A DNA stretch of 64,000 nt from assembly GCA_964566225.1 (NCBI GenBank), contig CAZMHV010000001.1:85963-149962 (forward strand). The letters run 5' to 3'. Source of the stretch: an uncultured Gammaproteobacteria bacterium (GTDB lineage Bacteria > Patescibacteriota > Patescibacteriia > Magasanikbacterales > UBA922). Made by a program: the position numbers and the translations under genes. Positions 2,470 through 18,835 of this stretch are shown piece after piece (position 1 is the first letter of the stretch; every line of letters begins with the position of its first letter). The notes beneath the pieces are model-generated. The model did not search any database. It saw only the letters and a list, made by a program, of their open reading frames with translations, and was not told where the DNA came from.

Positions 2470-2497
2470 AAACCCCTTTGAAAAGAAGGGGTTTTTC
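2470..2497 (+). terminator. Rho-independent terminator after dnaE
   Basis: Perfect inverted repeat aaacccctt / aaggggttt followed by a T-run, immediately 3' of the dnaE stop. Confidence 0.6.
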
Positions 2498-2499
2498 TA

Positions 2500-2528
2500 T
2501 TGACTTTTTTATAAAATTGTGCTATACT
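2500..2528 (+). promoter_or_regulatory. Sigma70-like promoter TTGACT-17-TATACT driving the high-GC ATPase gene
   Basis: TTGACT at 2500-2505, a 17-nt spacer, then TATACT at 2523-2528. It lies about 40 nt upstream of the ATG at 2571, which has a GGGGGGA Shine-Dalgarno. Confidence 0.5.
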
Positions 2529-2570
2529 CTCGACAATTTATCCACGGACGTCCACACAAGGGGGGACCGA

Positions 2571-3170
2571 ATGAGTATTCCTGTGGTTGCTTTCACGGGC
2601 GCGCCTTGCGGAGGCAAGAGCATGGCCGTAGAGGCGATTCGGCAGCAGTTTGCCGGCAAGGTCGTAGTGGTGCCAGAAATGGCCTCCACCATCCTCGCAG
2701 GCTTTCCGCTGCCTGGTCGGGACCTCGAGTGGTCCTCGGAGTGGCAAGATTGCCTTCAAAGGACCATCCTGCGTGCGCAGCTCGAAGCTGAGGAGGCATG
2801 GCGCGCTGCAGCCATTCACCAGAATGCCAAGATCATTCTGTGTGATCGGGGAGTTCTCGATGGGGCAGCCTATCGGGGTGTGAGTGCTCAGCAGTTCTGC
2901 GTTGAATTCGGCATTGATCTCAACGAGGTGCATGCCCGCTACACGGGGGTTTTGCACCTCCAGTCGCTGGCTGAATTTTCGCCCGAACTCTATACCGCGA
3001 ACATGGCCTCGAACCCTCACCGGTTTGAGAGTGCTGCTCGCGCTCAGGAGCTCGATCGGGCGCTTCTGTTGGCCTGGAGGGGCCATTCGAATCACGAGTT
3101 CATTCCGGCAGATGCCAGTATTGGACGAAAGCTCGACCAAGTCGTCGAATTCGTCCAGCATCTCATCTGA
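2571..3170 (+). CDS. P-loop NTPase, AAA_28-like putative kinase/ATPase, in a high-GC cassette
   Basis: Walker A motif AFTGAPCGGKS at the N-terminus. Codons are GC3-rich, unlike the flanks. The longer ORF from 2478 would run through the promoter and AT-rich DNA, so the ATG at 2571 with its SD is preferred. Confidence 0.6.
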   Translation: MSIPVVAFTGAPCGGKSMAVEAIRQQFAGKVVVVPEMASTILAGFPLPGRDLEWSSEWQDCLQRTILRAQLEAEEAWRAAAIHQNAKIILCDRGVLDGAAYRGVSAQQFCVEFGIDLNEVHARYTGVLHLQSLAEFSPELYTANMASNPHRFESAARAQELDRALLLAWRGHSNHEFIPADASIGRKLDQVVEFVQHLI

Positions 3171-3193
3171 ATAGAGGAACGTCCTCGCGGCCT

Positions 3194-3216
3194 GGGGGTG
3201 TCCGTCAACACCCCCC
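3194..3216 (+). terminator. GC-rich hairpin (ggggtgt...acacccc) after the high-GC ATPase gene
   Basis: Inverted repeat 24 nt after the stop. It has no T-tract, which is the style seen in high-GC organisms. Confidence 0.4.
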
Positions 3217-3235
3217 TTCCAATCTTACTCAACAA

Positions 3236-3272
3236 AAAAGAGACACGTTACAGGTCTCTTTTCTTTTTTTTC
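3236..3272. terminator. Bidirectional intrinsic terminator (agagacacgttacaggtctct flanked by A/T runs)
   Basis: Hairpin with an A-run on its 5' side and a T-run on its 3' side. It sits between the converging high-GC ATPase gene (+) and tsaD (-). Confidence 0.55.
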
Positions 3273-3276
3273 TAAT

Positions 3277-4347
3277 CTATTCACCCAGCTCCCACTGCGG
3301 ATCCGCTTTCACATCCTTCCAAGAAATAAATTCTTTTTTTACGGCCTTATAATATCCAGCAATCGCAATCATGGTCGCATTATCCATGGAGTACTTTGAT
3401 TCTGGAATCAAAAATTTGGTACCAGGAAATTGCTCGTCCACTGCCTGCTGCAACGTCTCACGCAATTTTTTGTTGGCACTCACACCACCACCCAGCACAA
3501 TAGTTTTGGGTTTGTATTCTGCTGCCGCGCGCATAGTTTTAATTACCAGCACATCAATAATTGCTTGTTCAAATGATGCACAAAAATCATTGATGGTAGG
3601 GGACTGTGGCGTCACTCCAAATACTCCTGCAGGCAAATTCAAAGCATTGGTATTCACTGCACTCAACTGATTATCTCGCAGCCAATACAAAGCAGCAGTT
3701 TTGAGTCCAGAAAAACTAAAGTCATAGTGAGCGTCCTTCATCATCGGTCGTGGAAATTGAATCGCACTGGTTTTTCCTTCCATTGCAAACTTTGAAATTT
3801 TTGGTCCACCTGGATAATCAAACCCAAGAAGTTTCGCAGCTTTATCAAAACATTCACCAGCGGCATCATCTACCGTCTTACCAATTTTTTCATATTCCCC
3901 CTGACTTTTCATGACAATCAATTCTGTATGTCCACCTGAAACAATGAGTCCCAAAGCAGGGAATTCAATTTTTGCATTGTTACTATTCAGCTCAACCGAA
4001 TGTATATGCCCCTCAATATGGTTGACGCCCACCATGGGCACATCCCACAAATACGATAATGTTTTGGCTGCATCCACGCCAACGAGCAGCGCAGTCATGA
4101 GCCCTGGCCCACTCGTCACTGCAATCACATCAGGCTTCTCTTGTCCAGCCATCACTTCTTCAACGAGAGGCACAATAAACTCTGCATGCGCGCGAGCCGC
4201 CACTTCTGGCACCACACCACCATATTTTTTGTGAATTTCAATTTGGCTCGCAGTTTTTTCGGCAAGCACAACAAAGCCCACTTCAGAGGCTTCAAGAAGA
4301 GAAACTGATGTGTCGTCGCACGATGATTCAATGCCGAGTATTTTCAT
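3277..4347 (-). CDS. tsaD: tRNA N6-adenosine threonylcarbamoyltransferase TsaD (Kae1/Gcp family)
   Basis: 356 aa with the MKILGIESSCDDTSV N-terminus and the two His metal site (HIEGH). Full-length ASKHA-fold match. Confidence 0.9.
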   Translation of the reverse strand: MKILGIESSCDDTSVSLLEASEVGFVVLAEKTASQIEIHKKYGGVVPEVAARAHAEFIVPLVEEVMAGQEKPDVIAVTSGPGLMTALLVGVDAAKTLSYLWDVPMVGVNHIEGHIHSVELNSNNAKIEFPALGLIVSGGHTELIVMKSQGEYEKIGKTVDDAAGECFDKAAKLLGFDYPGGPKISKFAMEGKTSAIQFPRPMMKDAHYDFSFSGLKTAALYWLRDNQLSAVNTNALNLPAGVFGVTPQSPTINDFCASFEQAIIDVLVIKTMRAAAEYKPKTIVLGGGVSANKKLRETLQQAVDEQFPGTKFLIPESKYSMDNATMIAIAGYYKAVKKEFISWKDVKADPQWELGE

Positions 4348-4411
4348 AAGTATAAATTTGGCTTATTTAAAGCCATTTAATCACAAAAAAATAAAAAATG
4401 CAAGAAAACAA

Positions 4412-4438
4412 AAAACAGTCCATATTTTGAACTGTTTT
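4412..4438. terminator. Hairpin terminator (aaaacagtcc...gaactgtttt) downstream of the ASCH gene
   Basis: Inverted repeat with flanking A/T runs, immediately beyond the stop of the minus-strand gene at 4446. Confidence 0.45.
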
Positions 4439-4445
4439 TATTATA

Positions 4446-4775
4446 TTAATTTTTTGGTGTAATTTTTATTCCCACTACTCCATACGTTAGCTCATCTTCT
4501 TTAGTATAAAATTTATAATAAATTTCGAGTGCCTCTTCAATCGTATTTTTATCTGGAATGACATTTTCTAAACCTGTTTGTTCAATCATTTCTCGAAAGC
4601 TTGAATAAATATTTTTTTCCAAAACTGTGTATTCGACCAAGTCATTAATTTTTAAAATATCTCCAACTTGTAATTCAAAAAATTTTCCTTTGTTGAGACG
4701 TCCCTCGACTGTTTTTTTCCCAGCGAGTATCTGACTGAAATAGGGTTCCTGAATATTAATTTCGATTTTTTTCAT
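4446..4775 (-). CDS. ASCH-domain protein, PUA-like RNA-binding fold (YqfB-like)
   Basis: 109 aa carrying the ASCH signature GKKTVEGR (G-x-K-x-x-E-x-R). The codon usage is AT-rich, matching the host backbone. Confidence 0.7.
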   Translation of the reverse strand: MKKIEINIQEPYFSQILAGKKTVEGRLNKGKFFELQVGDILKINDLVEYTVLEKNIYSSFREMIEQTGLENVIPDKNTIEEALEIYYKFYTKEDELTYGVVGIKITPKN

Positions 4776-4800
4776 AGTATTATTTTAGTAGTATAGCTCT

Positions 4801-4857
4801 GTTTTCAACTCATGAAAAATTTGAGTTCAAAACGGAGCTGGAGTGTGTGGACTCCAG
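4801..4857 (-). terminator. Two tandem hairpins between the GNAT-ASCH gene stop and the ASCH gene
   Basis: gttttcaactcatgaaaaatttgagttcaaaac at 4801-4833 and ctggagtgtgtggactccag at 4838-4857, both inverted repeats just 3' of the minus-strand stop at 4901. Confidence 0.4.
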
Positions 4858-4900
4858 ACCCCCCCTTTCATTTTGTTTGTTCGGCCACACCCGATCTAGG

Positions 4901-6241
4901 TCATCGCATCCTGGGCTCCACCTCCAGAACGTATACCCCGAGACGCTCCTTCTCGGGAGGGTAGATCGTCGTCAGGACTTCGAGCACCTGCGCTTTGACT
5001 TGGCCAGGCACGATTTTGCCCGCGTCTTCCACCTCGAGCATCGACTCGAAGCTGTCATACCGGCGAATCGCACGGACGGTGATGATCCCCGAGGCATCAT
5101 TCGTCTCGAGTTGGATACGTTCACCCGCCCGGATGCTCCGGATGTTGTCGTAGCCGACTCGTACTTCGAGTGTCTTCCTTCCCGACATGATGTCGAGGTA
5201 GAAGCGCCGTTTGACTCGCATCGTTCTTGGCATGATGTCCTCCAGGTAGTAGCCCCATTGCTGGGTGCTGTAGTCTTCGTGGTAGGCCGCGGGCATCATC
5301 GCATCGAGGGACCATCCCCTGCGTTGCAGGACGATAGTTTCCGCGACCGTTGGGACGAGGTGTGTGTAGAGTTTTCTCCCGTACGGCCTCAGATAGTTCG
5401 GCAAGTCAGTGAGCATCGCCGCAAAAGCGTCGGGGTCACTGGCCACACAGGGCATGAGCTTGATGGGCTGCCCCTTTTTGGGAGTAGCCCCTGCCACACC
5501 ACGCACAGTGTTGGTGAGGTCAACAGCGACGAAGATCAGTTTGAACTTGAGGTTCACTTCTCCTGTGCTGCGACGCCTATATCCTTCAAAGAGGGCATCC
5601 ACCCACTGTCGATCGACTCCGCGGAAGTAGTTTGGAAACGTCCCGTCGAGGATCAGCCGATAGACTCCATCGCGGTGGTGCTCTTCGAATGGCAGTACCG
5701 AAATGCTTCGGTTATCCGGCATTTCCTCATCCACTTCTGTTGTGGAGAGGGTTTTGTAGAGCATCATCTCTGTCACTCCGGGTTTGTAGTGACTCTGAGA
5801 TCGCCCTGCGGGGATGTATCCTTTCTTTCTGAAGAAGGAAATTGCCGAATGGTTCTGTTCTGCCACGGTACAGTAGATTTGCCTTGCTCCACGCTCTCTC
5901 GCGTACTGTTCGGCATGTGCCGTCAGTTCACTTCCACAGCCGTTCTGGGCTTGGAATGCGGGAGCGATGATGAGTGGGCTGATTTTCCAGGTGCCCTGTC
6001 GTTTTCGGACGATGTGAATCATCCCGATTTGGGTCGTACCGTCCACGAGGATGAACATCCTCTGCTCGGCAGAGAAGTGTCCTACGTGATCTTTACCTCC
6101 ACAGATGTGCGTCTCGAAGATCCGAGCCGCATGCGCACGGTGGTCGCCATCGTAGTACGGGGCCAGGGCGTTATCCATGAGGTCTGAGACGAACTGGAAG
6201 TCTGTCTCTTGAGCTTCGCGAATTTTTCGTCCTTCTGACAT
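4901..6241 (-). CDS. Three-domain protein: N-terminal GNAT acetyltransferase, central unknown domain, C-terminal ASCH domain (high-GC cassette)
   Basis: The N-terminal ~165 aa carry the GNAT acetyl-CoA motif (QAQNGCGSEL, then ARERGARQIYCTV). The C-terminal ~110 aa carry the ASCH motif SGRKTLEVR and a YqfB-like end (GVYVLEVEP). GC3 is strongly elevated. The mirror ORF on the plus strand (4847..6187) is a compositional shadow. Confidence 0.7.
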   Translation of the reverse strand: MSEGRKIREAQETDFQFVSDLMDNALAPYYDGDHRAHAARIFETHICGGKDHVGHFSAEQRMFILVDGTTQIGMIHIVRKRQGTWKISPLIIAPAFQAQNGCGSELTAHAEQYARERGARQIYCTVAEQNHSAISFFRKKGYIPAGRSQSHYKPGVTEMMLYKTLSTTEVDEEMPDNRSISVLPFEEHHRDGVYRLILDGTFPNYFRGVDRQWVDALFEGYRRRSTGEVNLKFKLIFVAVDLTNTVRGVAGATPKKGQPIKLMPCVASDPDAFAAMLTDLPNYLRPYGRKLYTHLVPTVAETIVLQRRGWSLDAMMPAAYHEDYSTQQWGYYLEDIMPRTMRVKRRFYLDIMSGRKTLEVRVGYDNIRSIRAGERIQLETNDASGIITVRAIRRYDSFESMLEVEDAGKIVPGQVKAQVLEVLTTIYPPEKERLGVYVLEVEPRMR

Positions 6242-6486
6242 TTGGAGCCTTTCTTGGGGTTATGCGAAGAAACGAAATTGTACCCTCATGCTGGGATTAG
6301 CAAATTGGGTTGCCACAGGATAACACCTTGTCAACGGAATGTCAATTTCTCATAGGATTGTTTCAAAATAAAACAATGAATGAAAGGCATCTCACTCATT
6401 GTTACAATTTACAGATGTGAGAGTAAATGGTATCTTATAATAAAAATAATATATTCATTTAAAAAATACCCATAAATATAGGTTAT

Positions 6487-6936
6487 ATGGATTTTATTCG
6501 AAGAATGTTTCGCGGTGATCGATCATTAGATCAAAAGTCACTAATCCCACCAGAAGTAACACAATACAATTTTGATGCTGCTTTAGAAAGATTAAAAACA
6601 GTTGAAGATTTTGAAAGAAATCAGCGAGATGCTTTTGAACTCTATCGAAAATTGACCGGTTATGAAAAGAGTTATGAAGATGTGTTGCGTGAACTTGAGA
6701 GAGGCTTTGCTGGTGATAATGAAACAGTTTATAGAATTTCTGGATCGAGTGTACGAGCGAGATTGTTATTCGAAAAAATAGAGCAAAGTCGAATCAGCGA
6801 GGATCCTCTGTATAATGGTAGTAATGTGCCAATGGTGGCTGATGCTGATAAATTTTTTTTACCTGCATATCATGACTTAGTTCAAAAGTTTTTAAAAGCA
6901 GGGATTGTGATAAAATTTCAAGGACGCGCTCGGTGA
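6487..6936 (+). CDS. Hypothetical protein (149 aa)
   Basis: Intact AT-rich ORF followed by a hairpin terminator. No recognisable motif. Confidence 0.4.
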   Translation: MDFIRRMFRGDRSLDQKSLIPPEVTQYNFDAALERLKTVEDFERNQRDAFELYRKLTGYEKSYEDVLRELERGFAGDNETVYRISGSSVRARLLFEKIEQSRISEDPLYNGSNVPMVADADKFFLPAYHDLVQKFLKAGIVIKFQGRAR

Positions 6937-6942
6937 TAAAAA

Positions 6943-6968
6943 AACTTCCCTTAAGAGGAAGTTTTTTA
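6943..6968 (+). terminator. Rho-independent terminator (aacttcc cttaaga ggaagtt + T-run)
   Basis: Inverted repeat plus T-tract directly after the stop at 6936. Confidence 0.55.
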
Positions 6969-7071
6969 CTGAGTAGAATTTTATTGTTGAAGGTGTTCTT
7001 GAAGCATTTAAGTCAGCTCTTTTGTTGTAAATGTTACGTTATGATTCACTCCAACTAAATGCGCATAATTT

Positions 7072-7332
7072 TTATTCTGCAAGAGATGCTTCTACACTCT
7101 GTACCAATTCTGCGTGAGGTAATTTATAACCTTCCATTTTGAGTACAAGATTTTGTACGTAATCAGGGGCACTGTTAACTGACGTATCTCCTTTTAGAAT
7201 TTCTAAAAGAGTTTTTAAATCTGCTTTAGCTTCTCTTTTTAAATCTTCATCTAAGCGTCTTTTCGCAGATTCTGGACTTTCTGGGGGTACTTTAAATGTC
7301 ATTGCAGCATCAAATGGATGTTCTATACTCAT
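7072..7332 (-). CDS. Hypothetical small protein (86 aa)
   Basis: Only the part of ORF 7072..7551 that does not overlap the tRNA can be coding. The start is taken at MSIEHPFD. Confidence 0.3.
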   Translation of the reverse strand: MSIEHPFDAAMTFKVPPESPESAKRRLDEDLKREAKADLKTLLEILKGDTSVNSAPDYVQNLVLKMEGYKLPHAELVQSVEASLAE

Positions 7333-7397
7333 ATTTTTAAAATTTAAGAATAATATTAAATAGAGTTTTGTTGTATAAACAAAGTTTTTAATTGTTG

Positions 7398-7469
7398 TAG
7401 CACCACGGGGAATCGAACCCCGATTTGGTGGATGAGAACCACCTGTCCTAACCATTAGACGATGATGCC
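7398..7469 (-). tRNA. tRNA-Glu (anticodon CUC)
   Basis: The reverse complement folds as a cloverleaf. It has a 7-bp acceptor stem (GGCATCA/TGGTGCT, two G-U pairs), a GTCTAATGGTTAGGAC D-arm, an anticodon stem GGTGG/CCACC with loop TTCTCAT, and a GGGGTTCGATTCCCC T-arm. No CCA is encoded. Confidence 0.7.
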
Positions 7470-7507
7470 GTATGTGGGGGAAAGTATACGGTTTTTTATC
7501 TTGTTTG

Positions 7508-7888
7508 TCAATGTTTTTTCTTGTTTTTTGAAAGACGAAAAACAATATCAATGAGTTTAAAAATCACCCATACAAAAGGTGAAAAAACAGTAAAAATTAT
7601 ATTTACTATTTTATTAAGAAGAGAAAATTCTCTTTCAAATGGAGTATCTCTATTTAAGACAAAGTCTGTCTCTCTAAAGAGTTTTTCAATCGTTTCTGGA
7701 GTTATAAAACGGACATCGTATACTATTTCAATTTTTTCATCATGAATTTCTACAGAAATATCGGGTAGTAACGAATTTACAAAAGAAAAAAGTTTATTTC
7801 TGTCATATGGGGGAGAAATTTTGTAACACACGAATTTTTTATTTTTATTGGGAAGAGTAATAAAAAACATAAAATAATATAGAGACAC
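7508..7888 (-). CDS. Hypothetical protein (126 aa) with a C-terminal hydrophobic segment
   Basis: AT-rich ORF with no recognisable domain. Confidence 0.35.
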   Translation of the reverse strand: MSLYYFMFFITLPNKNKKFVCYKISPPYDRNKLFSFVNSLLPDISVEIHDEKIEIVYDVRFITPETIEKLFRETDFVLNRDTPFEREFSLLNKIVNIIFTVFSPFVWVIFKLIDIVFRLSKNKKKH

Positions 7889-7892
7889 GCTT

Positions 7893-7937
7893 GCTGGGTT
7901 GGTGAACAGTACTATGAAGTTTGTTCACCAACCCAGC
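7893..7937 (-). terminator. Perfect 16-bp-stem hairpin (gctgggttggtgaaca...tgttcaccaacccagc) 3' of the high-GC lipoprotein gene
   Basis: 16-bp perfect inverted repeat with a 13-nt loop, 25 nt downstream of the minus-strand stop at 7962. It is GC-rich and has no T-tract. Confidence 0.5.
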
Positions 7938-7961
7938 TGAAAGGAAAACGACGAGCCTCAC

Positions 7962-8672
7962 TCAGATGGCGAGGCCGACCATCACCACCGGTGCCGCGAT
8001 TTCCGAGATGACGGCCGCCGTTGCAGCACCAACACCCACGGCCACAGCGATGTTGTAGATGTTGTCTCTCACCCATCGCACGGACGGAGGCTCACACATG
8101 CAGAGGCTGAAAGGTATCACACTCTCGTACACACCGAAGCAGAGTCGTCCGTTCTGTCTGTACTTCATGAAGTGGATGTCGAACACCTGGCGGAAGTTTC
8201 CAGCACGGTTGCTCCCGTAGTTGAGTCGGATCGCGTAGTAGTCCGCGGTCCGAGTACACACGGGGAAGTCGTGCCTTCCTCCCGAGGATGTCAGCCTGTA
8301 TTGCCCGACGGCGACGTCGAGGGGGGACTTCACTTCCGTATACGACAGCGGCTCTGTGGACGTTTCTTCTCTGAAGAGGTTGTCCAGCTCGGTGCTGATG
8401 TTCGGGCCGAAGCTGTACACGATGGTGTAGCCGTTGTTCGAAGCCCAATCGGTCAGACTGGGCAGGTAGGACTTGAAGTCCTCCAGCGTGTTGAACTCGA
8501 TCTTGTCCGGGAGCGTCGCCCTGAACTCACCGTTGGTGTCGGTGTCCACCTCGATGAGGTAGGTCTGCTCCGCCGTGCTGGAGGAGTCGTCGTGGGTGCT
8601 GGCCGAGGAGGGGTTGATCCGCTGCTCACAACCGAGCAAGCACAGAATCGCAAACAACAGTTTGAATTTCAT
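7962..8672 (-). CDS. Lipoprotein of unknown function (high-GC cassette)
   Basis: N-terminus MKFKLLFAILCLLGC has a lipobox LLGC. It is followed by a Ser/Thr/Asp-rich linker and a C-terminal Gly/Ala/Val-rich hydrophobic tail. GC3 is strongly elevated, and the antisense ORFs 8172..8756 and 8092..8448 are shadows. Confidence 0.55.
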   Translation of the reverse strand: MKFKLLFAILCLLGCEQRINPSSASTHDDSSSTAEQTYLIEVDTDTNGEFRATLPDKIEFNTLEDFKSYLPSLTDWASNNGYTIVYSFGPNISTELDNLFREETSTEPLSYTEVKSPLDVAVGQYRLTSSGGRHDFPVCTRTADYYAIRLNYGSNRAGNFRQVFDIHFMKYRQNGRLCFGVYESVIPFSLCMCEPPSVRWVRDNIYNIAVAVGVGAATAAVISEIAAPVVMVGLAI

Positions 8673-8844
8673 GGTTGGACTCTCTCTGTGGGTTGGGGTA
8701 CCTGTTGGAGTACTCAATTTGCGGGGTATTCGATAGATTTTCCTTTCGTTGAATAATTTTGAATGGCCAATGGACACAACATGTGTCCATGAGCACAATG
8801 TCTATAAATAATCATATCATAAGTTTAGATTTTTACAAAAATAA

Positions 8845-8872: not shown

Positions 8873-8881
8873 TGGCAGAAT

Positions 8882-9327: not shown

Positions 9328-9334
9328 AAATTTT

Positions 9335-10852
9335 TTATCGTGCGTATTCAATGACTCTATTTTCGCGAATTACCATGACTTTAATTTCACCAGGGTATTG
9401 CAATTCACTTTCAATTTTGCGAGCAATATCTTTGGCCAAGTTATATGATTGGTAATCATCAATCTGGTTTGGATCTACAAATACACGAATTTCACGACCA
9501 GCTTGAATGGCATACACTTTGTCCACGCCAGGAAAGTCTTTGGCTGTTTTTTCCAAATCTTCCAAACGTCCTACGTATTGTTCATAGGTATCTCGGCGAG
9601 CACCAACACGTGAAGCAGAAATAGCATCTCCGGCCATGACAATTTTGGTGAGGAGGAGTGGTGGGTTGGTATCGTGGTGAGTGAGTGCCACTTGGGCAGT
9701 ATCTTCATCGAGATTAAATTTTTTCAAAATAGTATAACCAATTTGGGTGTGCGCGCCTTGTGTTTCATGGTCAATGGCTTTTCCAATGTCATGAAAAAAT
9801 CCTGCGCGGCGGGCTTTGGCTGGATCAACACCGAGTTCTTCGGCCATGAGAGCAGAAAGGTATCCAACTTCCATAGAGTGGTTCAGTACGTTTTGACCAT
9901 AACTGGTGCGGTATTTCAAGCGTCCTACAATAGAGATAAGTTTAGGATCAAGCCCGACAATTCCCATTTTGTGAACGGTTTCATCACCAACTTTTTTAAT
10001 ATCTATGGCCATGTCACGCTTGGCTTCTTCGGCGTATTCTTCAATCTTGGCAGGTTGAATACGACCATCAGCAATAAGTTTTTCAATAGTAAGTTGACAC
10101 ACACGGCGGCGGATAGGGGAGAAACTTGAGATAAGCAAAATTTCTGGAGTTTCGTCAATAATAAGTTCACATCCAGTGAGCTTTTCAATCGTCTTGATAT
10201 TGCGGCCTTCTTTTCCAATAATTCTTCCTTTCATTTCTTCACTAGGAAGAGTGATGGAGGTAGAAGTAGTTTCAGCAGCGTGGTTGCAGGCAGTACGTTG
10301 CATGGCATTAATCACGAGTTCTTTGGCCTTGTTTCGTACTTCTTCAGACATTTCGTCGTCAATTTTCATCATGCGGTGTACCAAGTCGTCTTTGGAACTT
10401 TCTTCTATTTTGGCAAACAGTTCATTGCGGGCTTGTTCTGCAGTATACCCAGAAATAACTTCCAATTTGGTCATTGCCTGTGCTTTGGCTTCTTCTACTT
10501 TGGCTTTTACTTCATGAACTTGCTGAACTTTTTCTTCGAGTTTGGTTTTTTTGTCTTCAAATTCTGTAATTTTTTGATCAAACATGGACTCGCGTTGTTC
10601 GAGTCTTTTTTGAAGCTGCTGCATTTCTGTGCGGCGGCGTTCTTCTTCTTTTTTGGCTTCATCAATCACTTGAATAGCCTTTTCTTTCGCACTCAAAACA
10701 ATTTCTTGTTCTTTGTTTTTGGCTTCCAACAATTTTTTCTCTGCCAGGGCTTCAATAGAGTTGGCTTGTTTTTGTGCTTGCTGTTTACGGAGCACATACC
10801 CAATGCCAAGCCCTGCACCCAAGGCAAGGAGAGCTATAATAGCATTTAACAT
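9335..10852 (-). CDS. rny: Ribonuclease Y
   Basis: N-terminal TM helix, a coiled-coil region, a KH domain (GRIIGKEGRNIK) and an HD domain (FHDIGK). Confidence 0.9.
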   Translation of the reverse strand: MLNAIIALLALGAGLGIGYVLRKQQAQKQANSIEALAEKKLLEAKNKEQEIVLSAKEKAIQVIDEAKKEEERRRTEMQQLQKRLEQRESMFDQKITEFEDKKTKLEEKVQQVHEVKAKVEEAKAQAMTKLEVISGYTAEQARNELFAKIEESSKDDLVHRMMKIDDEMSEEVRNKAKELVINAMQRTACNHAAETTSTSITLPSEEMKGRIIGKEGRNIKTIEKLTGCELIIDETPEILLISSFSPIRRRVCQLTIEKLIADGRIQPAKIEEYAEEAKRDMAIDIKKVGDETVHKMGIVGLDPKLISIVGRLKYRTSYGQNVLNHSMEVGYLSALMAEELGVDPAKARRAGFFHDIGKAIDHETQGAHTQIGYTILKKFNLDEDTAQVALTHHDTNPPLLLTKIVMAGDAISASRVGARRDTYEQYVGRLEDLEKTAKDFPGVDKVYAIQAGREIRVFVDPNQIDDYQSYNLAKDIARKIESELQYPGEIKVMVIRENRVIEYAR

Positions 10853-11111: not shown

Positions 11112-11172
11112 AGCAGATTTTGGTCTTTTTGTCAAAAATCTGCTTGCCAAAAATACAAATTTCATCTAAAAT
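11112..11172 (+). promoter_or_regulatory. Candidate promoter (TTGCCA-17-TAAAAT) overlapped by an 11-bp inverted repeat, upstream of the flippase gene
   Basis: agcagattttg at 11112-11122 and caaaaatctgct at 11132-11143 form a perfect inverted repeat. The -35 at 11144-11149 and -10 at 11167-11172 sit 11 nt before the ATG at 11184. Confidence 0.35.
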
Positions 11173-11183
11173 AGGGGAAAACT

Positions 11184-12614
11184 ATGTCCCATTCTGTTGC
11201 CAAAAATGCTGCGTTCATGACTGTTGCCTCTATTGCCCAAAAGGTCATTTCTTTTGTGTACTTTACTCTTATTGCTCGTTCTATTGGGGTAGAAGGAACA
11301 GGGAAGTACTTTTTGGCACTTTCATTTACTACAATTTTTGTAGTTTTTGTTGACCTTGGGTTTACCAATGTGCTGGTTCGCGAAGCAGCGAGAGTTCGAG
11401 AACATATTCAAAAATATGTTTCAACTATTTTGTCAGTAAAGCTGGTACTTGGTCTTTTGGCGTATGTTGCTGTCTTTTTGGTCAGTAAAAAATTATATCC
11501 TGATACAGAACTTCGTTTCATGATTTTACTCTCTGGTATTACCATGCTGTTTGATTCCTTTAACCTTACGGTATATGGTGTGCTCAGGGCTATTGGAGAT
11601 TTACGTTTTGAATCTTTGTCTATTACCTTTTCACAATTTGCTTCCCTTATTTTGGGAAGTATTTTTCTTTTTTTTCATTTGCCACTTATTTTTCTTATTT
11701 TGGCTTTTACCATTCCAAGTGCGCTCAATGCGATCTATGCAAGTTATACAGTGTTTCATCGATATCAGGTAACAGCTGTTCCACGGTTTGATGCCCCCAC
11801 TTTTGTGTGGCTTTCCAAAATTACAATTCCTTTTGCTTTGGCAGCTATTTTTGCTCGGGTGTATGGATATATTGATACATTGCTCCTTGGTCACTTTCTT
11901 GGTTCGGAGGCTGTTGGATTTTATAGCACTCCATACAAAATTACTTTTGCATTTCAGTTTATTCCTTTGGCACTCACCGCCGCACTCTACCCACGCCTCA
12001 GTGAATACTTTGTGCACCACAAAGAAAAATTCGCCACAGTTTTGGTGGACTCACTCAAGTATTTGTTGATTGTTGCTGTGCCTATTGCTATTGGTATTGC
12101 TGTGCTTGCACGTCCCATTATTGTGTTGCTCTACAAAGAAGCTTTTTTGCCTTCAGTTTTGCCTTTGCAAATTCTTATTATAAGTCTTATCTTTTCTTTT
12201 GCGAGTTTTCCTGTGGGAGCTGCCTTGAATGCGGGTAATAAACAGGTGACACAAACTACTATTGTGGGTCTGGTTATGGTGATCAATATCATTATGAATG
12301 TGATTTTGATTCCAAAGACTGGTGTGGTAGGGGCAGCTGTTTCTGCTCTTATTGGGAATATTTTGTTGACCGTTATTGGATACTGTTTTTTGTATACGAT
12401 TGTTACTGTCAATCACAAAAAGTTTTTTTTCACCAGTGCCAAGGTTTTGTTGTCTGGAATTATGATGGGACTGGTGGTGTATTTGGTGAGTGATATGTTC
12501 AATTTGGTCAGTGCTATTGTATCTGGTGCTTTTGTGTATACTGGTTTTATTTTGCTGTTTCGTTGTATTACCGTTCCAGAACTTCAAGAGGCTTTTCGTC
12601 TTCTCAAAAAATAA
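11184..12614 (+). CDS. Polysaccharide/oligosaccharide flippase (Wzx/MOP superfamily)
   Basis: 476 aa, polytopic throughout. The N-terminus is of the polysaccharide-biosynthesis-protein type (VAKNAAFMTVASIAQKVISFVY...IARSIGVEGTGKY). Confidence 0.65.
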   Translation: MSHSVAKNAAFMTVASIAQKVISFVYFTLIARSIGVEGTGKYFLALSFTTIFVVFVDLGFTNVLVREAARVREHIQKYVSTILSVKLVLGLLAYVAVFLVSKKLYPDTELRFMILLSGITMLFDSFNLTVYGVLRAIGDLRFESLSITFSQFASLILGSIFLFFHLPLIFLILAFTIPSALNAIYASYTVFHRYQVTAVPRFDAPTFVWLSKITIPFALAAIFARVYGYIDTLLLGHFLGSEAVGFYSTPYKITFAFQFIPLALTAALYPRLSEYFVHHKEKFATVLVDSLKYLLIVAVPIAIGIAVLARPIIVLLYKEAFLPSVLPLQILIISLIFSFASFPVGAALNAGNKQVTQTTIVGLVMVINIIMNVILIPKTGVVGAAVSALIGNILLTVIGYCFLYTIVTVNHKKFFFTSAKVLLSGIMMGLVVYLVSDMFNLVSAIVSGAFVYTGFILLFRCITVPELQEAFRLLKK

Positions 12615-12624
12615 TTTTTTTTGC

Positions 12625-12650: not shown

Positions 12651-12723
12651 ACCATTTGGTAGTGAATGGTGTTTTAACCGTGCCTTCTCATACACAAAGA
12701 AGGCCACTACCATGGAGGAGTGA

Positions 12724-13818
12724 TTGCGAAATCCGCGTCCCATTCAAGTGATGCGTGTTTTTTCTGAACCTGACAAGCCCCTGGAGATTCAGTTCTCCGA
12801 CGTCTTGCCGGGAACCAAGTTCGAGAGCTGGCAGTGGATGGTGTTCACTGGTCAGCTCGGTGTGGCTCGTGAAGTGGGGGACAACGGTCAACCCGTTACG
12901 TTCTTCGCTGTCAAGACCTATGATCTCGATGTGGTGCGCAATGGCAAGCGCATGTACTTCAAGTTTCATGCTCCCAAGGGCATCGAGGACCTGCCGCCCC
13001 TCTTTGTGGAGGCTCATGCGGACACGCGTGTGGTCTCTGACGTCGATGGTCCGAAGGAGGTCACGTCGTTCACACACTGCCTCTGTGCGAGTGTGTGGCT
13101 GCTTTCTTCTTCGGCCAGTGTGGTCGTCTCCGAGAATCGTCTCCGGCAGCGTGCCCACGAAGCTCGGGTCGTCACCGAGCATGCACAGGCAGTCCAGGCG
13201 ATGCGTGATCGTGTAGGCACGCTCACTCCAATGCAGCTGGCTCCCTACATGCAGCTGTGGGGTCAGTTCAAAGGCAAAAAGACCTCGGATTCTGCCAAGC
13301 AGCAGATCGTGCGTCAGGCCATTGGTGCCTGGGCACGGGCTCAGGGTATGCATGAAACCGAGAGTCTGCTCGAGGCAGTCGGTGACCAGCTCTCTGATCT
13401 CGTGAAGGGCCTCACGGATTACTACCAGGAGTACATCTCCGTCGACACGAACGGGCAGAACAAGGATACTCTCACCAAGCTGCTGCGTGCACATCTGCGG
13501 CCGCTTCTCGAAGATCTGCATCATCCGCTGCAAGATCACCATGTCGATGGCATTGTGTCTTGTCTCGTCTCCAACGGTCGGTTCCCTCGCCGGTTTCGCC
13601 GTATGGTGGGTGACGAGATGCACTCGGTGATGGTGGCGGTGAATCGGGCGATGAAACGGGAGTTGGTCTCTGCTGCACCTGCAGCACAATCAACTGCGCC
13701 CGAGGAGAAAGCAACTCCTCCTCGGCCTGTCGCCGCACGCAGGGGAGGGGGCATTCGTCTCAATCCGAAGAGACTCCCTGGTCTCAGGCGGGACACAGCA
13801 CCTCCCCAAGGCGGCTGA
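12724..13818 (+). CDS. Hypothetical protein, 364 aa (high-GC cassette inside the polysaccharide cluster)
   Basis: TTG start with a strong SD (GGAGGAG, 5 nt upstream). Codons are GC3-rich and the composition is balanced. The antisense ORF 12688..13689 is His/Arg-rich and looks like a shadow. No recognisable domain. Confidence 0.55.
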   Translation: MRNPRPIQVMRVFSEPDKPLEIQFSDVLPGTKFESWQWMVFTGQLGVAREVGDNGQPVTFFAVKTYDLDVVRNGKRMYFKFHAPKGIEDLPPLFVEAHADTRVVSDVDGPKEVTSFTHCLCASVWLLSSSASVVVSENRLRQRAHEARVVTEHAQAVQAMRDRVGTLTPMQLAPYMQLWGQFKGKKTSDSAKQQIVRQAIGAWARAQGMHETESLLEAVGDQLSDLVKGLTDYYQEYISVDTNGQNKDTLTKLLRAHLRPLLEDLHHPLQDHHVDGIVSCLVSNGRFPRRFRRMVGDEMHSVMVAVNRAMKRELVSAAPAAQSTAPEEKATPPRPVAARRGGGIRLNPKRLPGLRRDTAPPQGG

Positions 13819-13835
13819 CCACCGCCATTCACATC

Positions 13836-13852
13836 TGCCCCCTGGAGGGGGA
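13836..13852 (+). terminator. GC hairpin (ccccctggaggggg) after the high-GC unknown gene
   Basis: Short perfect inverted repeat about 20 nt after the stop, with no T-tract. Confidence 0.3.
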
Positions 13853-14027
13853 GCAGGACTGCAAGGGGGTAGTTCACTACCTCCGGTTCGCCAAGATTCT
13901 TATGTTAGGAATTTTGGCGAATTTTTTTTCTAGACCAGAGGGGCGGGACGTGATAGAATATGGATACAAAATTATTTATTGTCTATCTGCCTTGCTTCGT
14001 AAGTCAGATACACTCCTTCGTTTATCT

Positions 14028-15164: not shown

Positions 15165-15165
15165 T

Positions 15166-15885: not shown

Positions 15886-15892
15886 AGAGGTA

Positions 15893-17347: not shown

Positions 17348-17362
17348 AGTTTTGTGGAGCGG

Positions 17363-18283
17363 TTAGTTGAGAGTATCGCCCACAAAATTTTGGTATCCAC
17401 TCAAAAATGCTTTGGCATCCACTGCAGTTTTGCCTTCAAGTTGGAGTGTTCGTATTTCGACTGATCCGGTTGTACATCCAATGTACAATTTTCCATTTTG
17501 TGAAATTACTTGTCCGGGCAGTGCCGTAACATCACTTGGTCGCACGTCAGTAAGCTTGAGTCGTTTTTCTCCCCACATGGTCCACAGACCTGGCCATGGA
17601 GTGAGACCTCGATACTGATTGTATACTTCCTGTGCCGATTTTTTCCAGTCTACTCTGCCGTTTTCACGAGTAAGAAGTGTGGTGAGCGTTGCCTCTGCGT
17701 TGTTTTGTGGTTGTTTTTCAAGTGTTCCATCAATGTATAAAGGTATGGCTTCAAGCAGTGCTTTTGCGCCAATTTTGGCCAAGCGAGCATCAAGTTCAAG
17801 GTATGTTTCATCTGAAAGAATATCAATTTCTTTTTGGAGGAGTATTGGTCCTGTGTCCATTCCTTCATCCATTTGCATTATGGTGACTCCTGTTTTTGTT
17901 TCGCCATGCCACAAGGCAAACTGAATTGGCGATGCTCCACGGTATTTGGGCAAAAGAGATGTGTGTACATTGAGGGTGCCAAATTGTGGTGCATCAATAA
18001 TTGATTTTGGAATAATGCGACCATACTGAGCCACCACACTGAGGTCACCTGTCACGGATTCAAAATCAAAATTTTTGAGTGAAGCTGGTTGTGATACAGG
18101 AATATTGTATTTGTCTGCCAAAACTTTGACTGGTGGGGGAGTGAGCACTTGTTTGCGACCTACTGGTTCATCAGGCTGTGTCACCACATGTGCCACTTCA
18201 ATAAACGGAGCATCAATGAGTGCTTGCAAAATTGTAACGGCAAATTGGTGTGTGCCAAAAAAGGTAATTTTTGTTTTGTTCAT
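17363..18283 (-). CDS. fmt: Methionyl-tRNA formyltransferase
   Basis: N-terminus KITFFGTHQFAVTILQAL. The formyltransferase core and the C-terminal tRNA-binding domain are both present. Confidence 0.9.
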   Translation of the reverse strand: MNKTKITFFGTHQFAVTILQALIDAPFIEVAHVVTQPDEPVGRKQVLTPPPVKVLADKYNIPVSQPASLKNFDFESVTGDLSVVAQYGRIIPKSIIDAPQFGTLNVHTSLLPKYRGASPIQFALWHGETKTGVTIMQMDEGMDTGPILLQKEIDILSDETYLELDARLAKIGAKALLEAIPLYIDGTLEKQPQNNAEATLTTLLTRENGRVDWKKSAQEVYNQYRGLTPWPGLWTMWGEKRLKLTDVRPSDVTALPGQVISQNGKLYIGCTTGSVEIRTLQLEGKTAVDAKAFLSGYQNFVGDTLN

Positions 18284-18317
18284 ATTCAGATTGTTCTACA
18301 ATAAAGAGAGATATATT

Positions 18318-18340
18318 TCAATCTCTCCTTGTATACCTTT
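18318..18340. promoter_or_regulatory. Inverted repeat GAGAGAT-N8-ATCTCTC, a candidate operator between fmt and the PadR-like gene
   Basis: 7-8 bp arms with an 8-nt spacer, the geometry of a dimeric winged-helix operator. It lies between divergently oriented genes. Confidence 0.3.
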
Positions 18341-18411
18341 ATCCTATCACAAAAAAGAAACCCTTTCAAGCTAAAAAATTGCTTGATTTCAGTACAATTT
18401 TTTCAAATCTC

Positions 18412-18439
18412 TTGACAAAATATGGGTGAAGAATATACT
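18412..18439 (+). promoter_or_regulatory. Sigma70-like promoter TTGACA-16-TATACT driving the PadR-like gene
   Basis: TTGACA at 18412-18417 and TATACT at 18434-18439, followed by an AGGGGAAAG SD and the ATG at 18475. Confidence 0.5.
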
Positions 18440-18474
18440 TGTTCTACTTTCAAACCAAGGCAGGGGAAAGTTTG

Positions 18475-18783
18475 ATGAGTATCGAGGTGGGGACACTGAT
18501 CCTCTGTGCTCTCACTTCTGGAGAGCGCACGCTTGCTGATTTGATGGAGATTCTTCTGAAGCTGAGTCGTGGCATGCAGGCGTTTTCACCTGCGGCGATC
18601 AATATTCAGCTTCTAGAGTGGAAGAACGCCGGCTTCATCGAGTATGAGGCCAGAAATCCGCTCACCGGGTCCATAGCCAAGCTGAAACCTGAGGGAAGGC
18701 ACTACCTGCTCAAGTCACCCGAGATGGTGTTCGTGCGTACTGCACTGAACCGCCTCGCCGAGGAGAATCAAGGCGAGACCTAG
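18475..18783 (+). CDS. Small winged-helix transcriptional regulator, PadR-like (high-GC cassette between def and fmt)
   Basis: 102 aa. GERTLADLMEIL...SRG...SPAAINIQLLEWKNAGFIEYE fits the PadR pattern (recognition helix followed by a wing and the L-x-x-L-E-x-x-G-x-I motif). GC3 is elevated. Confidence 0.45.
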   Translation: MSIEVGTLILCALTSGERTLADLMEILLKLSRGMQAFSPAAINIQLLEWKNAGFIEYEARNPLTGSIAKLKPEGRHYLLKSPEMVFVRTALNRLAEENQGET

Positions 18784-18808
18784 GCGTTCCCCCTCGAACG
18801 TCGTCAAG

Positions 18809-18835
18809 TGAGACCTGTCCACCGTGTGGGCAGGT
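18809..18835 (+). terminator. GC hairpin (gacctgtccac cgt gtgggcaggtc) after the PadR-like gene
   Basis: 11-bp inverted repeat with one mismatch, 25 nt after the stop. Confidence 0.35.

Follow-up and report, generated by a model that had tools for sequence, protein, structure and literature searches.

Flexible genomic islands, which Rodriguez-Valera and colleagues reportedly divide into 'replacement' and 'additive' types, occupy fixed slots between core genes or beside tRNA genes; their contents differ by strain, and surface-exposed products are typical. The five genes analyzed here (I1 to I5), which lie in a 64 kb window (the whole stretch of DNA under study) of a small Magasanikbacteria (CPR) genome, resemble these islands in that I3 encodes a lipoprotein and I4 lies within a polysaccharide cluster, but each is one gene long rather than many kilobases, the tRNA slot has no adjoining integrase, and the genomes compared belong to different species or genera rather than to strains of a single species. 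In bacteria, DNA of foreign origin is usually more AT-rich than the host genome, whereas these islands are GC-richer. Integron cassettes are likewise single-gene units of foreign composition with unrelated functions; however, they are promoter-less, bounded by attC sites and arranged in tandem beside an integrase, whereas the islands are dispersed, each with a promoter of the native type, and neither an attC-like repeat nor an integrase occurs at them. Phage 'morons' also are single genes with their own promoter and terminator, inserted between conserved genes and often different in composition, but the islands sit among chromosomal core genes, not in a prophage, and searches of viral contigs and PHROGs gave no match for I3, I4 or I5. 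The single-gene islets of Patescibacteria (PMC12455944) share with the islands an atypical composition, sporadic distribution, mostly unknown functions, no need for mobility genes, and exchange that is apparently mostly within the phylum. Unlike these islets, two of the islands are conserved in position across deeply diverged relatives, and their GC3 has not been ameliorated as expected.

The five islands are real flexible genes, ordinary members of the accessory gene pool of this Magasanikbacteria clade, that run from the organism's own promoters. They are not a coordinated system. Nor are they five fresh imports from one donor, given that at least two of them are found at the same positions in relatives. 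The genes and their associated elements are:

I1 promoter, 2500..2528, plus strand: host-type sigma-70, TTGACT-17-TATACT with a TG extension, aligning with the corresponding segment of the relatives L092 and L175
I1, 2571..3170, plus strand: 199-aa P-loop AAA_28 protein (Pfam PF13521, 66.6 bits)
I1 hairpin, 3192..3216, plus strand: GGGGGTGT-loop-ACACCCCC, GC-rich, without a T-tract (-23 kcal/mol, z = -2.7)
ASCH gene, 4446..4775, minus strand: stand-alone, 109 aa, 29% GC (Pfam PF04266), the AT-rich partner of I2
I2, 4901..6241, minus strand: 446-aa GNAT-ASCH fusion (Pfam GNAT and ASCH)
I2 module promoter and leader, 6242..6412, minus strand: TTGACA-17-TATCCT at 6345-6317
tRNA-Glu(CTC), 7397..7469, minus strand: bounds a hypervariable slot together with tsaD
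I3 hairpin, 7888..7937, minus strand: 16-bp perfect stem (-33.6 kcal/mol, z = -5.75)
I3, 7962..8672, minus strand: 236-aa lipoprotein of an uncharacterized family, with a C-terminal membrane helix
I4, 12724..13818, plus strand: 364 aa (TTG start) or 355 aa (ATG start at 12751), inside the polysaccharide cluster
I5 promoter, 18412..18439, plus strand: host-type, TTGACA-16-TATACT
I5, 18475..18783, plus strand: 102 aa, inserted between def and fmt in antiparallel orientation; may be a small winged-helix (PadR-like) regulator
I5 hairpin, 18812..18836, plus strand: z = -4.25, followed by a short T run

A scan of the 64 kb (40.6% GC overall, sliding-window median 40%) with a 300-nt sliding window and a threshold of 52% GC identifies exactly five tracts of 55-59% GC (2451-3300, 4801-6300, 7851-8800, 12651-14000 and 18451-18850), all inside the first 19 kb. 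Maximum-likelihood change points set the island limits at 2542-3216, 4833-6337, 7882-8651, 12702-13892 and 18483-18836, with 55-59% GC inside and 31-42% in the flanks; each island is one transcription unit, and its limits run from just past the -10 box to the hairpin. The GC content of the island genes is 0.547-0.585 compared to 0.393 +/- 0.037 for 49 backbone genes (maximum 0.451; z = 4.2-5.2), and their GC3 is 0.64-0.81 compared to 0.17-0.40. Pooled island codon usage correlates with that of an ordinary high-GC genome (RSCU r = 0.75, the reference being a contig of uniformly 60-65% GC that bears an I1 homologue) but not with the backbone (r = -0.12). The preliminary description of five GC-rich single genes with G/C-ending codons in the style of high-GC organisms amid an AT-rich backbone is borne out by these values, and family searches confirm the backbone genes that it named (dnaE, tsaD, rny, fmt and def); HU, priA, a flippase, glycosyltransferases and Wzy are also identified. 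The GC shift affects all codon positions in I1 (58% GC; GC1/2/3 of 0.67/0.44/0.64) and I4 (58.5%; 0.67/0.44/0.65), and chiefly third positions in I2 (56%; 0.60/0.41/0.67), I3 (58%; 0.51/0.43/0.81) and I5 (55%; GC3 of 0.67).

The promoter pattern TTGAC(A/T)-N16-18-TATACT occurs 6 times in the window compared to 0.06 expected and also serves tRNA-Glu, def and two distant backbone genes. This promoter type is the host's own and not island-specific, so that TATACT promoters do occur at at least two islands (I1 and I5), as first reported, but are not the unusual cassette signature they were taken for; the promoter matches at I2 and I3 are weaker. The 3' hairpins have fold z values from -1.7 to -5.8. 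GC-rich hairpins without a T-tract, described at the outset for all islands, are found at I1, I2 and I3 but not at I5, with its short T run, or at I4, where the terminator is canonical and has a T-tract. L092 and L175 share the I1 hairpin, which shows compensatory changes there.

The I1 protein, correctly recognized from the start as a P-loop ATPase, resembles nucleoside or nucleotide kinases and is likely to be a salvage enzyme of this kind. L092 and L175 have orthologues of it in the same dnaE/tsaD slot (69% and 57% amino acid identity, respectively), both at 55-57% GC, with collinear gene order and alignable promoter and terminator; the best match outside the clade is 43% identical. The median GARP/FYMINK value of the family is 2.27 compared to 0.80 for the backbone. 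The I3 family, for which this median is 1.17, comprises 55 homologous clusters among 1.84 billion representatives. The I3 orthologue in L175 occupies the same HU/tRNA-Glu slot (51% amino acid identity, GC3 of 0.73), and the other relatives are at most 39% identical. The structure model of I3 (pLDDT 84) has no fold match, and the protein is likely to be a cell-envelope lipoprotein. In L179, with a genome of 32% GC, the I3 homologue has GC1 and GC2 that match the host but a GC3 of 0.71, opposite to the order in which amelioration is expected to proceed.

The I2 family, with 951 matches, has Magasanikbacteria as its nearest named members, and the Pfam matches agree with the original GNAT-ASCH assignment. 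The pair of I2 and the ASCH gene recurs in L091, where I2 is 92% identical at the amino acid level and lies in a different neighborhood, and in L084-L087. Together with the ASCH gene, I2 belongs to a mobile module of about 2 kb that has sharp homology ends (with L091, at about 4442 and, upstream, at the promoter and leader of 6242..6412) and is found in three different neighborhoods. Thus, the view that every island is one gene long holds for composition, but I2 is evolutionarily half of a two-gene module. The two proteins are likely to form an acyl-cytidine-type acetyltransferase/amidohydrolase pair. A homologue of I2 in a GC-rich Magasanikbacterium (GC1/2/3 of 0.58/0.38/0.87) displays the same GC3-only pattern as I2 and I3.

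For I4, the start could be TTG 12724, close behind GGAGGAG, or ATG 12751 (the NCBI call). The only match to this protein among 5.8 billion proteins is I4 itself, and there is none in Pfam, NCBIfam, PHROGs, PADLOC, PDB sequences, viral contigs or plasmids. I5 similarly has no family match in Pfam, PADLOC, PHROGs and the other libraries searched and no homologue in the searched loci. Its structure model is weak (pLDDT 52) and the top Foldseek matches are PadR-family proteins (E about 0.05-0.1), so that the proposed PadR likeness finds no echo at the sequence level and a faint one in structure; the protein is possibly a small winged-helix regulator.

The convergent dnaE/tsaD pair is separated by a median of 103 bp in 49 relatives, and def and fmt lie about 40-220 bp apart in nearly all of 52 loci, which supports the claim that the islands interrupt conserved neighborhoods. 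The tsaD-dnaE interval measures 0.5-4.7 kb in 22 of the 49 relatives, and in six relatives it contains other GC-rich genes, among them uridine kinase or PRPP synthetase; in L164, the def/fmt gap is likewise occupied. The slot between tsaD and tRNA-Glu is empty in L092 and contains four genes in L175, and h149, I2 and ASCH in the window. No homologue of any of the five islands is encoded near tsaD in 80 reference relatives, in accord with the accessory status proposed for these genes, and none was found at 80 fmt-anchored relatives.

A possible, although rather unlikely, explanation of the persistent GC bias is that a continuing gene-specific force holds certain accessory families GC-rich, and especially GC3-rich, in AT-rich CPR genomes, so that the islands would be at a compositional equilibrium of their own rather than donor relics. 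Such a force could be selection acting on synonymous codons, either for mRNA stability or to withstand an AU-directed RNase or toxin; it could also be GC-biased gene conversion where recombination is frequent, or local AT->GC-biased mutation within the transcription unit, the very unit that the island limits follow. The I3 family retains a GC3 of 0.71-0.81 in each of three AT-rich genomes, with GC1 and GC2 following the host. Backbone 4-fold sites keep about 47% of the ancestral state per lineage, so that the GC4 of 0.72-0.78 in I3 would require an impossible ancestral GC4 of 1.07-1.20; for I3, this rules out that one ancestral acquisition was followed by neutral amelioration, and the GC3 of this family persists beyond the neutral limit. 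For I1, the required ancestral GC4 is 0.74-0.98, which is marginal. Island 4-fold sites are fully randomized between orthologues (24-33% identity) and are still GC-rich in every lineage, the 55%/27% GC contrast inside the module of I2 and ASCH is kept in three genomes, and substitution flux in I2 is balanced (28 vs 25) with a compositionally neutral outgroup, although the result varies with the outgroup. Against such a force, the shift in I1 and I4 extends to every codon position and to amino acid composition, as expected from true residence in a GC-rich genome, and highly expressed native genes show no comparable GC bias. The dN/dS is alike in I2 and ASCH (0.17 and 0.14), which argues against synonymous-site selection alone. 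Published effects of GC-biased gene conversion are small, and conversion tracts should run past gene ends. The orthologue comparisons available number only seven.

Five recent independent single-gene acquisitions of self-contained promoter/terminator cassettes from one similar high-GC donor, as envisaged in the preliminary description, would account for the similar overall GC of the five genes, their pooled codon usage, the GC-rich hairpins inside the islands, and the lack of orthologues of I4 and I5 in the relatives examined. We consider this scenario improbable, and for I1, I2 and I3 it is already contradicted. The preliminary description itself had named high-GC homologues at the same positions in relatives as contrary evidence, and these exist for I1 in L092 and L175 and for I3 in L175: the same slots, alignable promoters and equally high GC at 51-69% protein identity indicate that these genes were not recently acquired, the backbone synonymous sites of these relatives being near saturation. 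A common donor is further disfavored by the codon-position patterns, which differ among the islands, by pairwise RSCU correlations between islands of only 0.33-0.73, by promoters of the host's own type, by the absence of detectable homologues of I4, and by the failure to find a donor with close homologues among 5.8 billion proteins.

That the five scattered genes act together as a dispersed module, for example in defense or regulation, seems very improbable. Their concentration within 19 kb (18 of the 57 genes; post hoc hypergeometric p about 0.002), the joint presence of I1 and I3 in L175, and the possible roles of I5 as a regulator and I1 as an ATPase are compatible with this idea, which had also been raised at the start. 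However, there is no match to a PADLOC or PHROGs system; L092 possesses I1 with an empty tsaD-tRNA-Glu interval, L175 has I1 and I3 without I2, I2 and ASCH are found in unrelated neighborhoods in L091 and L084, and the same slots hold the unrelated uridine kinase and PRPP synthetase genes in other relatives. Conserved co-occurrence is lacking because no homologue could be detected for I4, nor for I5 in the searches carried out; the partial evidence from sister genomes points to independent gain and loss of the five families. A chimeric joining of high-GC reads into a CPR contig, which the metagenomic origin of the assembly and the sharp compositional steps might suggest, is hardly credible given that separate Logan assemblies of two runs yield contigs (L001-L003) with 100% identity over the I1 and I2 junctions, L173 and L174 reproduce the I5 junctions at 100% identity (a 17.8 kb Logan contig should, by coordinate arithmetic, also cover I3 and I4), orthologous islands are present in three unrelated samples (L092, L175 and L091), and native promoters adjoin the islands.

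The origin that we favor takes as its starting point the directly observed composition, synteny, promoter type, accessory status, module boundaries and lineage-wide occurrence of these genes. They would have evolved in GC-richer genomes and entered AT-rich Magasanikbacteria as short pieces, each roughly one gene in length, perhaps through natural transformation or illegitimate recombination; their sources are likely to be GC3-rich Patescibacteria for I2, I3 and I5, and a GC-rich bacterium outside the CPR for I1 and perhaps I4. A GC-rich source is suggested by the codon usage of the islands, the GARP/FYMINK medians of the I1 and I3 families and the GC3-only pattern of the I2 homologue. For none of the islands, however, was a close GC-rich donor found, and the islands showed no integrase, transposase, target-site duplication or common boundary motif, and no signs of a plasmid, phage, integron or defense system. 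The pieces would have lodged in permissive slots beside tRNA-Glu and between core genes that are convergent or bounded by terminators (dnaE/tsaD, def/fmt, flippase/GT4) and come under native TTGACA...TATACT-type promoters. Vertical inheritance would have followed, the ancestor that the window organism shares with L092 and L175 already possessing I1 and I3, with fast evolution and only partial amelioration since. The genes, as seen for the I2 module, would also have moved to new positions or been exchanged one at a time by recombination with alleles of related lineages; the lower dS of I2 than of the adjacent ASCH gene (0.19 vs 0.76), at equal dN/dS, supports such replacement. Such allele replacement, for which I2 is the one demonstrated case, rescues the acquisition model and could be the reason for the lasting high GC3.

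Single-gene transfer is abundant in Patescibacteria and occurs mostly within the phylum (PMC12455944). Across 70 Magasanikbacteria loci, 41 of 953 ORFs (about 4%) are at least 10 GC points above their own backbone, and 80% of these outliers have no homologue in the other loci, compared to 32% of typical genes; conversely, AT-rich outliers are found in GC-richer Magasanikbacteria loci. On balance, the islands probably are flexible genes from GC-richer lineages that reside in permissive intergenic slots, where they are inherited and sometimes replaced.

The window (64 kb, 40.6% GC overall) comes from Candidatus Magasanikbacteria (Patescibacteria/CPR); among 185,579 reference species, the best matches of its TsaD protein are Magasanikbacteria MAGs with 59-66% identity. 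In a sliding-window scan with a threshold of 52% GC, exactly five tracts stand out, none of them beyond the first 19 kb, and change-point fitting assigns them 55-59% GC compared to 31-42% in the flanks. Each tract contains a single gene (hereinafter I1 to I5).

The five GC-rich islands: gene coordinates, strand, product and fitted tract
I1, 2571-3170, plus strand, AAA_28 P-loop protein; tract 2542-3216
I2, 4901-6241, minus strand, GNAT-ASCH fusion; tract 4833-6337
I3, 7962-8672, minus strand, predicted lipoprotein with a C-terminal membrane helix; tract 7882-8651
I4, 12724/12751-13818, plus strand, protein with no recognisable domain; tract 12702-13892
I5, 18475-18783, plus strand, 102 aa protein with no recognisable domain; tract 18483-18836

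Each island begins near the transcription start and ends at a stable hairpin past the stop codon (hairpin z from -1.7 to -5.8). The GC content of the island genes is 0.547-0.585, against 0.393 +/- 0.037 for 49 backbone genes (z = 4.2-5.2), and their GC3 is 0.64-0.81, against 0.17-0.40, so the preliminary description was correct in recognising five single-gene compositional outliers. The pooled codon usage of the islands correlates with that of the backbone at r = -0.12 (RSCU), with that of a uniformly 60-65% GC contig carrying an I1 homologue at r = 0.75, and with that of the islands of the closest relative, L175, at r = 0.83. Thus, both base composition and codon usage depart from those of the host, as is characteristic of horizontally acquired islets. 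High-expression codon bias is ruled out as the cause by the HU and ATP synthase genes (GC3 0.31-0.34), and so are overlapping antisense genes constraining synonymous sites, given that the antisense ORFs lack conservation in orthologues and do not depart from what synonymous shuffling predicts. The composition controls include the F-type ATP synthase operon (43675-48931) and an ordinary backbone gene for a 976-aa UvrD-type helicase fused to a PD-(D/E)XK nuclease (AddB-like; 59658-62588).

The islands fall into two classes, which is at odds with the single similar donor proposed previously. I1 and I4 are raised at all three codon positions (GC1/2/3 of 0.67/0.44/0.64-0.65) and their proteins show the amino acid composition of GC-rich proteomes (GARP/FYMINK 1.7 vs 0.8; the median for the wider I1 family is 2.27), a pattern that fits true ancestry in GC-rich bacteria. 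In I3, and largely also in I2 and I5, the GC1, GC2 and amino acid composition are host-like and GC3 is extreme, which is how GC-rich Magasanikbacteria differ from AT-rich ones; for example, the I2 homologue in the Magasanikbacteria locus L088 has GC1/2/3 of 0.58/0.38/0.87. The "GC-rich" Magasanikbacteria are themselves strong mosaics: in L088 (GWA2_56_11, 1-21332), gene GC3 ranges from 0.28 to 0.92, and in another relative's locus, L020, three of 17 genes are high outliers and six are low outliers.

An assembly artefact can be dismissed. The I1/tsaD/ASCH/I2 segment is 100% identical between the window and separately assembled Logan contigs of two runs (L001-L003), and the same holds for Wzy/fmt/I5/def/priA (L173 and L174); by coordinate arithmetic, one of these contigs, 17.8 kb long, should begin at window position 7434 and thus also cover I3 and I4. 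In addition, GC-rich homologous genes occupy the same places in assemblies of unrelated samples. Because the junctions are reproduced in contigs of two runs and orthologous islands exist in other samples, a chimera is ruled out.

The promoters do not set the islands apart either. The window has six copies of the motif TTGAC(A/T)-N16-18-TATACT, against 0.06 expected by chance, located upstream of I1, I5, tRNA-Glu, def and two distant backbone genes; therefore the -10 hexamer, previously taken as an unusual mark of foreign cassettes, is the organism's own strong-promoter type, and the motif is the host consensus promoter as opposed to an island-specific one. The I1 and tRNA-Glu promoters are kept in relatives. 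One of the six sites, a consensus TTGACA...TATACT promoter, lies about 290 bp upstream of a RelE-like toxin gene (110 aa, 31.5% GC) in the 33634-34281 region.

The neighbourhoods of the islands are conserved, as the preliminary description stated for dnaE-tsaD and def-fmt. The dnaE and tsaD genes are convergent and, in 49 relatives, separated by a median of 103 bp; this is the ancestral arrangement. In two closer relatives recovered through protein homologues, L092 and L175, an I1 orthologue is located exactly in this gap (69% and 57% amino acid identity, respectively; the flanking proteins are 75-81% identical to those of the window). The dnaE terminator, the I1 promoter and the post-I1 hairpin, which shows compensatory changes (GGGGGTGT...ACACCCCC vs GGAAGTGT...ACACTTCC), are alignable across the three genomes, and the I1 gene has 55-58% GC in all of them. 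Thus, I1 is older than their divergence.

The AAA_28 domain of I1 (PF13521) scores 66.6 bits over residues 6-179, above the Pfam gathering threshold of 27. The next-nearest matches (39-43% identity) include a uniformly GC-rich contig and proteins labelled Gemmataceae at NCBI; a weak thymidylate kinase-like PHROG match is also detected. In six relatives, the dnaE/tsaD slot holds other GC-rich genes, including those for uridine kinase and PRPP synthetase (L051, 4413-5048; L059, 13713-15577; L058, 12016-13095; L074, 11038-11751), which hints that nucleotide-salvage functions repeatedly lodge there. De novo nucleotide synthesis is generally absent from CPR bacteria. Given the kinase-like nature of this P-loop AAA_28 protein and the occupants of this slot elsewhere, a role of I1 in nucleotide salvage is plausible. 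The I1 carrier L092 also contains an AT-rich island, a HaeIII-type restriction endonuclease and DNA methylase pair (3242-5202, 30-36% GC). The contig L177 (1-12624), which encodes a 43%-identical I1 homologue, is another extreme mosaic with gene GC of 27-62% and also carries genes for a bAvd (DGR accessory) protein and a Csx3-like protein.

The history of I3 is similar. The order rny-HU-I3-tRNA-Glu is identical in L175 and the window, and the I3 promoter segment is alignable, less cleanly than that of I1; the I3 proteins are 51% identical compared to 90-91% for the flanking Rny and HU. The L175 gene has 59% GC and GC3 of 0.73. The presence of orthologues in the same slots of relatives contradicts a recent acquisition, at least for I1 and I3. 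A non-syntenic family member in a 32% GC genome (L179) has GC1/2/3 of 0.44/0.35/0.71 compared to 0.40/0.32/0.20 for its backbone, and family HMMs run against all fetched loci found no further I1 or I3 family members. The lipobox of I3 lies within MKFKLLFAILCLLGC, with Cys15 nearly invariant in a 38-member alignment, and a C-terminal hydrophobic helix is predicted. Thus, I3 is a predicted bacterial lipoprotein, apparently an envelope protein with invariant cysteines and a fold that has no solved relative. A 24-nt imperfect direct repeat (71%) brackets the gene (7884-7907 and 8678-8701), the only flank-to-flank repeat at any island, and probably reflects chance. Between I3 and the tRNA-Glu promoter, and overlapping the latter, there is a 126-aa ORF (7508-7888, 26% GC, no Pfam family match) seen in the window alone, an AT-rich counterpart of the GC-rich islands.

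The persistence of high GC3 can be compared with the decay expected after transfer. Between the window and L175, 42.5% of backbone 4-fold sites are identical compared to 26.4% expected at random, which under an F81-type model corresponds to a per-lineage retention of 0.47 (95% CI 0.40-0.53); the 4-fold sites of the islands themselves are at random identity (24-33%). With a backbone GC4 of 0.42, the I1 values of 0.68 and 0.57 require an ancestral GC4 of 0.74-0.98, which is just possible, and the I3 values of 0.78 and 0.72 require 1.07-1.20, which is impossible. Together with the GC3 of the L179 member, this shows that a single acquisition followed by decay fails for I3. Either the slot alleles would be replaced now and then by recombination with copies from GC3-rich relatives, or a gene-specific force would hold GC3 high.

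Replacement finds direct evidence in I2. Together with an adjoining AT-rich ASCH gene (4446-4775, 29% GC), I2 forms a module of about 2 kb, the homology of which with another relative's locus, L091, ends sharply at about 6412 and 4442. The pair, a GNAT-ASCH gene (about 445 aa) followed by a stand-alone ASCH gene (about 110 aa), is found in at least three different neighbourhoods, with the GC contrast kept each time.

I2-ASCH pairs: locus, coordinates and GC content of the two genes
Window, 4446-6241, 56/29%
L091, 366-2158, 55/27%
L084 (one of the loci L084-L087), 10001-11796, 49/30%

Between the window and L091, dS is 0.19 and dN 0.033 for I2, against 0.76 and 0.104 for the adjoining ASCH gene, at similar dN/dS (0.17 and 0.14, respectively). 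Such values are expected if I2, without its neighbour, traces back to a common ancestor about four-fold more recent; under selection on synonymous sites, the dN/dS of I2 would have risen, so these data speak for allele replacement. A polarised-substitution test for ongoing amelioration in I2, intended to separate replacement from a gene-specific force, is dominated by the composition of the outgroup (33:12 when a GC-rich outgroup is added, 28:25 for a neutral outgroup alone), and its ASCH control gives a mirror-image artefact. The two domains of I2 exceed the gathering thresholds (PF00583, 46.6 bits vs 20.7; PF04266, 34.3 bits vs 21.2), and its nearest named matches are from Magasanikbacteria. 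The GNAT-ASCH family yields 951 matches, with more than 50% identity across proteins labelled by source as Patescibacteria, archaeon and Acidobacteria. The stand-alone ASCH protein of the pair resembles the YqfB-type proteins, which hydrolyse N4-acetylcytidine (PMC6972931); by analogy, the pair may function in acyl-cytidine writing and erasure or in salvage.

The module occupies a hypervariable slot: tRNA-Glu directly follows tsaD in L092, the same interval contains four other genes in L175, three of them GC-rich, and in the window (4348-7396) it contains h149, I2 and the ASCH gene. The tRNA-Glu(CTC) region itself (7397-7511) carries a conserved TTGACA-17-TATACT promoter.

No sequence relatives of the remaining two islands were found in the collections searched. 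Among 5.8 billion proteins, the only match of I4 is itself, and there is none in Pfam, NCBIfam, PHROGs, PADLOC, PDB sequences, viral contigs or plasmids. I4 is immediately followed by a long, AT-rich hairpin of 18 bp with a T-tract (13885-13923), which overlaps the annotated ATG of the GT4 gene (13902); the true start of that gene may be further downstream. I5 splits def-fmt, a pair that in nearly all of 52 loci is adjacent, with a gap of about 40-220 bp; in L164, the closest relative found for def/fmt, the gap is 856 bp and contains two unrelated small ORFs with GC-rich patches. A metagenome scan anchored on fmt, aimed at the slots of I4 and I5, returned mostly distant bacteria; L164 alone was informative, and nothing comparable was returned for the polysaccharide cluster around I4. 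I5 has no family match in the Pfam, NCBIfam, PHROGs and PADLOC profile libraries and no PDB sequence match, and neither the viral-contig scan nor the 160 fetched loci revealed a relative. Its low-confidence structural model (pLDDT 52) has a winged-helix topology, and the top Foldseek matches, none of them significant (E 0.05-0.1, TM about 0.45), all belong to small regulators of the PadR family; a role of I5 as a small winged-helix regulator is possible.

Overall, the distribution of the islands is patchy, again as in acquired islets: they are absent from 80 tsaD-anchored and 80 fmt-anchored loci, yet I1 is found in L092 and L175, and I3 in L175. In 70 Magasanikbacteria loci, 41 of 953 ORFs are at least 10 GC points above the local backbone, and 80% of these outliers lack a homologue in any other locus, compared to 32% of compositionally typical genes. 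There is also an AT-rich tail (20 genes, 60% unique), GC-richer loci in turn carry AT-rich outliers, and five of the ten genes of L175 are GC-rich. Patescibacteria have been reported to exchange many single genes, mostly among themselves (PMC12455944).

The islands are bounded by no recognisable recombination site. There is no integrase or transposase in the region, and no convincing flanking repeats, shared inverted-repeat element or integron- or transposon-like boundaries are found at the islands; the only hallmark of mobility is that the slots of I2 and I3 adjoin tRNA-Glu. Unlike integron cassettes, which are promoter-less, tandem and associated with IntI and attI/attC, the islands are dispersed and possess their own promoters. 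A defence system or phage or plasmid cargo is without support: none of seven proteins matches a PADLOC model at E <= 0.01, PHROGs give generic acetyltransferase, ASCH and kinase matches only, IMG/VR viral-contig scans for I3, I4 and I5 yield nothing, and plasmid tblastn searches are negative for I3 and I4 and give just two matches, to distant chromid sequences, for I1.

Thus, the five islands consist of flexible genes of foreign-looking composition, located in permissive slots. Of the earlier interpretation, the accessory nature of these outliers and their placement in conserved neighbourhoods hold, and the one donor does not; nor is the origin recent, at least for I1 and I3. Transfer followed by vertical inheritance and allele replacement is the explanation that we favour, if by a modest degree. 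Appreciably less probable is a gene-specific force that keeps some accessory families of AT-rich Patescibacteria GC3-rich, 40-50 points above the host, such as synonymous-site or mRNA selection, GC-biased conversion at recombination-prone flexible loci, or a transcription-unit mutational bias; I3 is the clearest case for it, and perhaps I2, and the islands would then be in a compositional state that is stable and heritable, as opposed to retaining a fading signal of transfer. The remaining probability is shared by a single donor, an artefact and a dispersed functional system, the last of which is contradicted by the lack of coordination among the islands (no PADLOC match, inconsistent contents of L092 and L175).

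A literature search returned no description of positionally conserved GC-rich single genes in CPR genomes, and we found no description of the combination of positional conservation, native promoters, fast protein divergence and undecayed GC3. Compositional islands are routinely read as recent transfers, and in this case the shortcut leads to an incorrect history: two of the islands, with native promoters, are older than the split of genomes with nearly saturated synonymous sites, and the I3 family keeps extreme GC3 in three different AT-rich hosts. If a gene-specific force on GC3 is real, it would be an unusual exception to amelioration theory and would call for caution when transfer is detected from GC content, and the cleaning of metagenome bins by GC could discard such genes as contamination. 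If, as we favour, the islands reflect gene flow from GC-richer Patescibacteria, the reduced genomes of these episymbionts would renew flexible genes, including those for nucleotide-salvage enzymes, envelope proteins and regulators, one at a time, at fixed intergenic slots and without mobile-element machinery.
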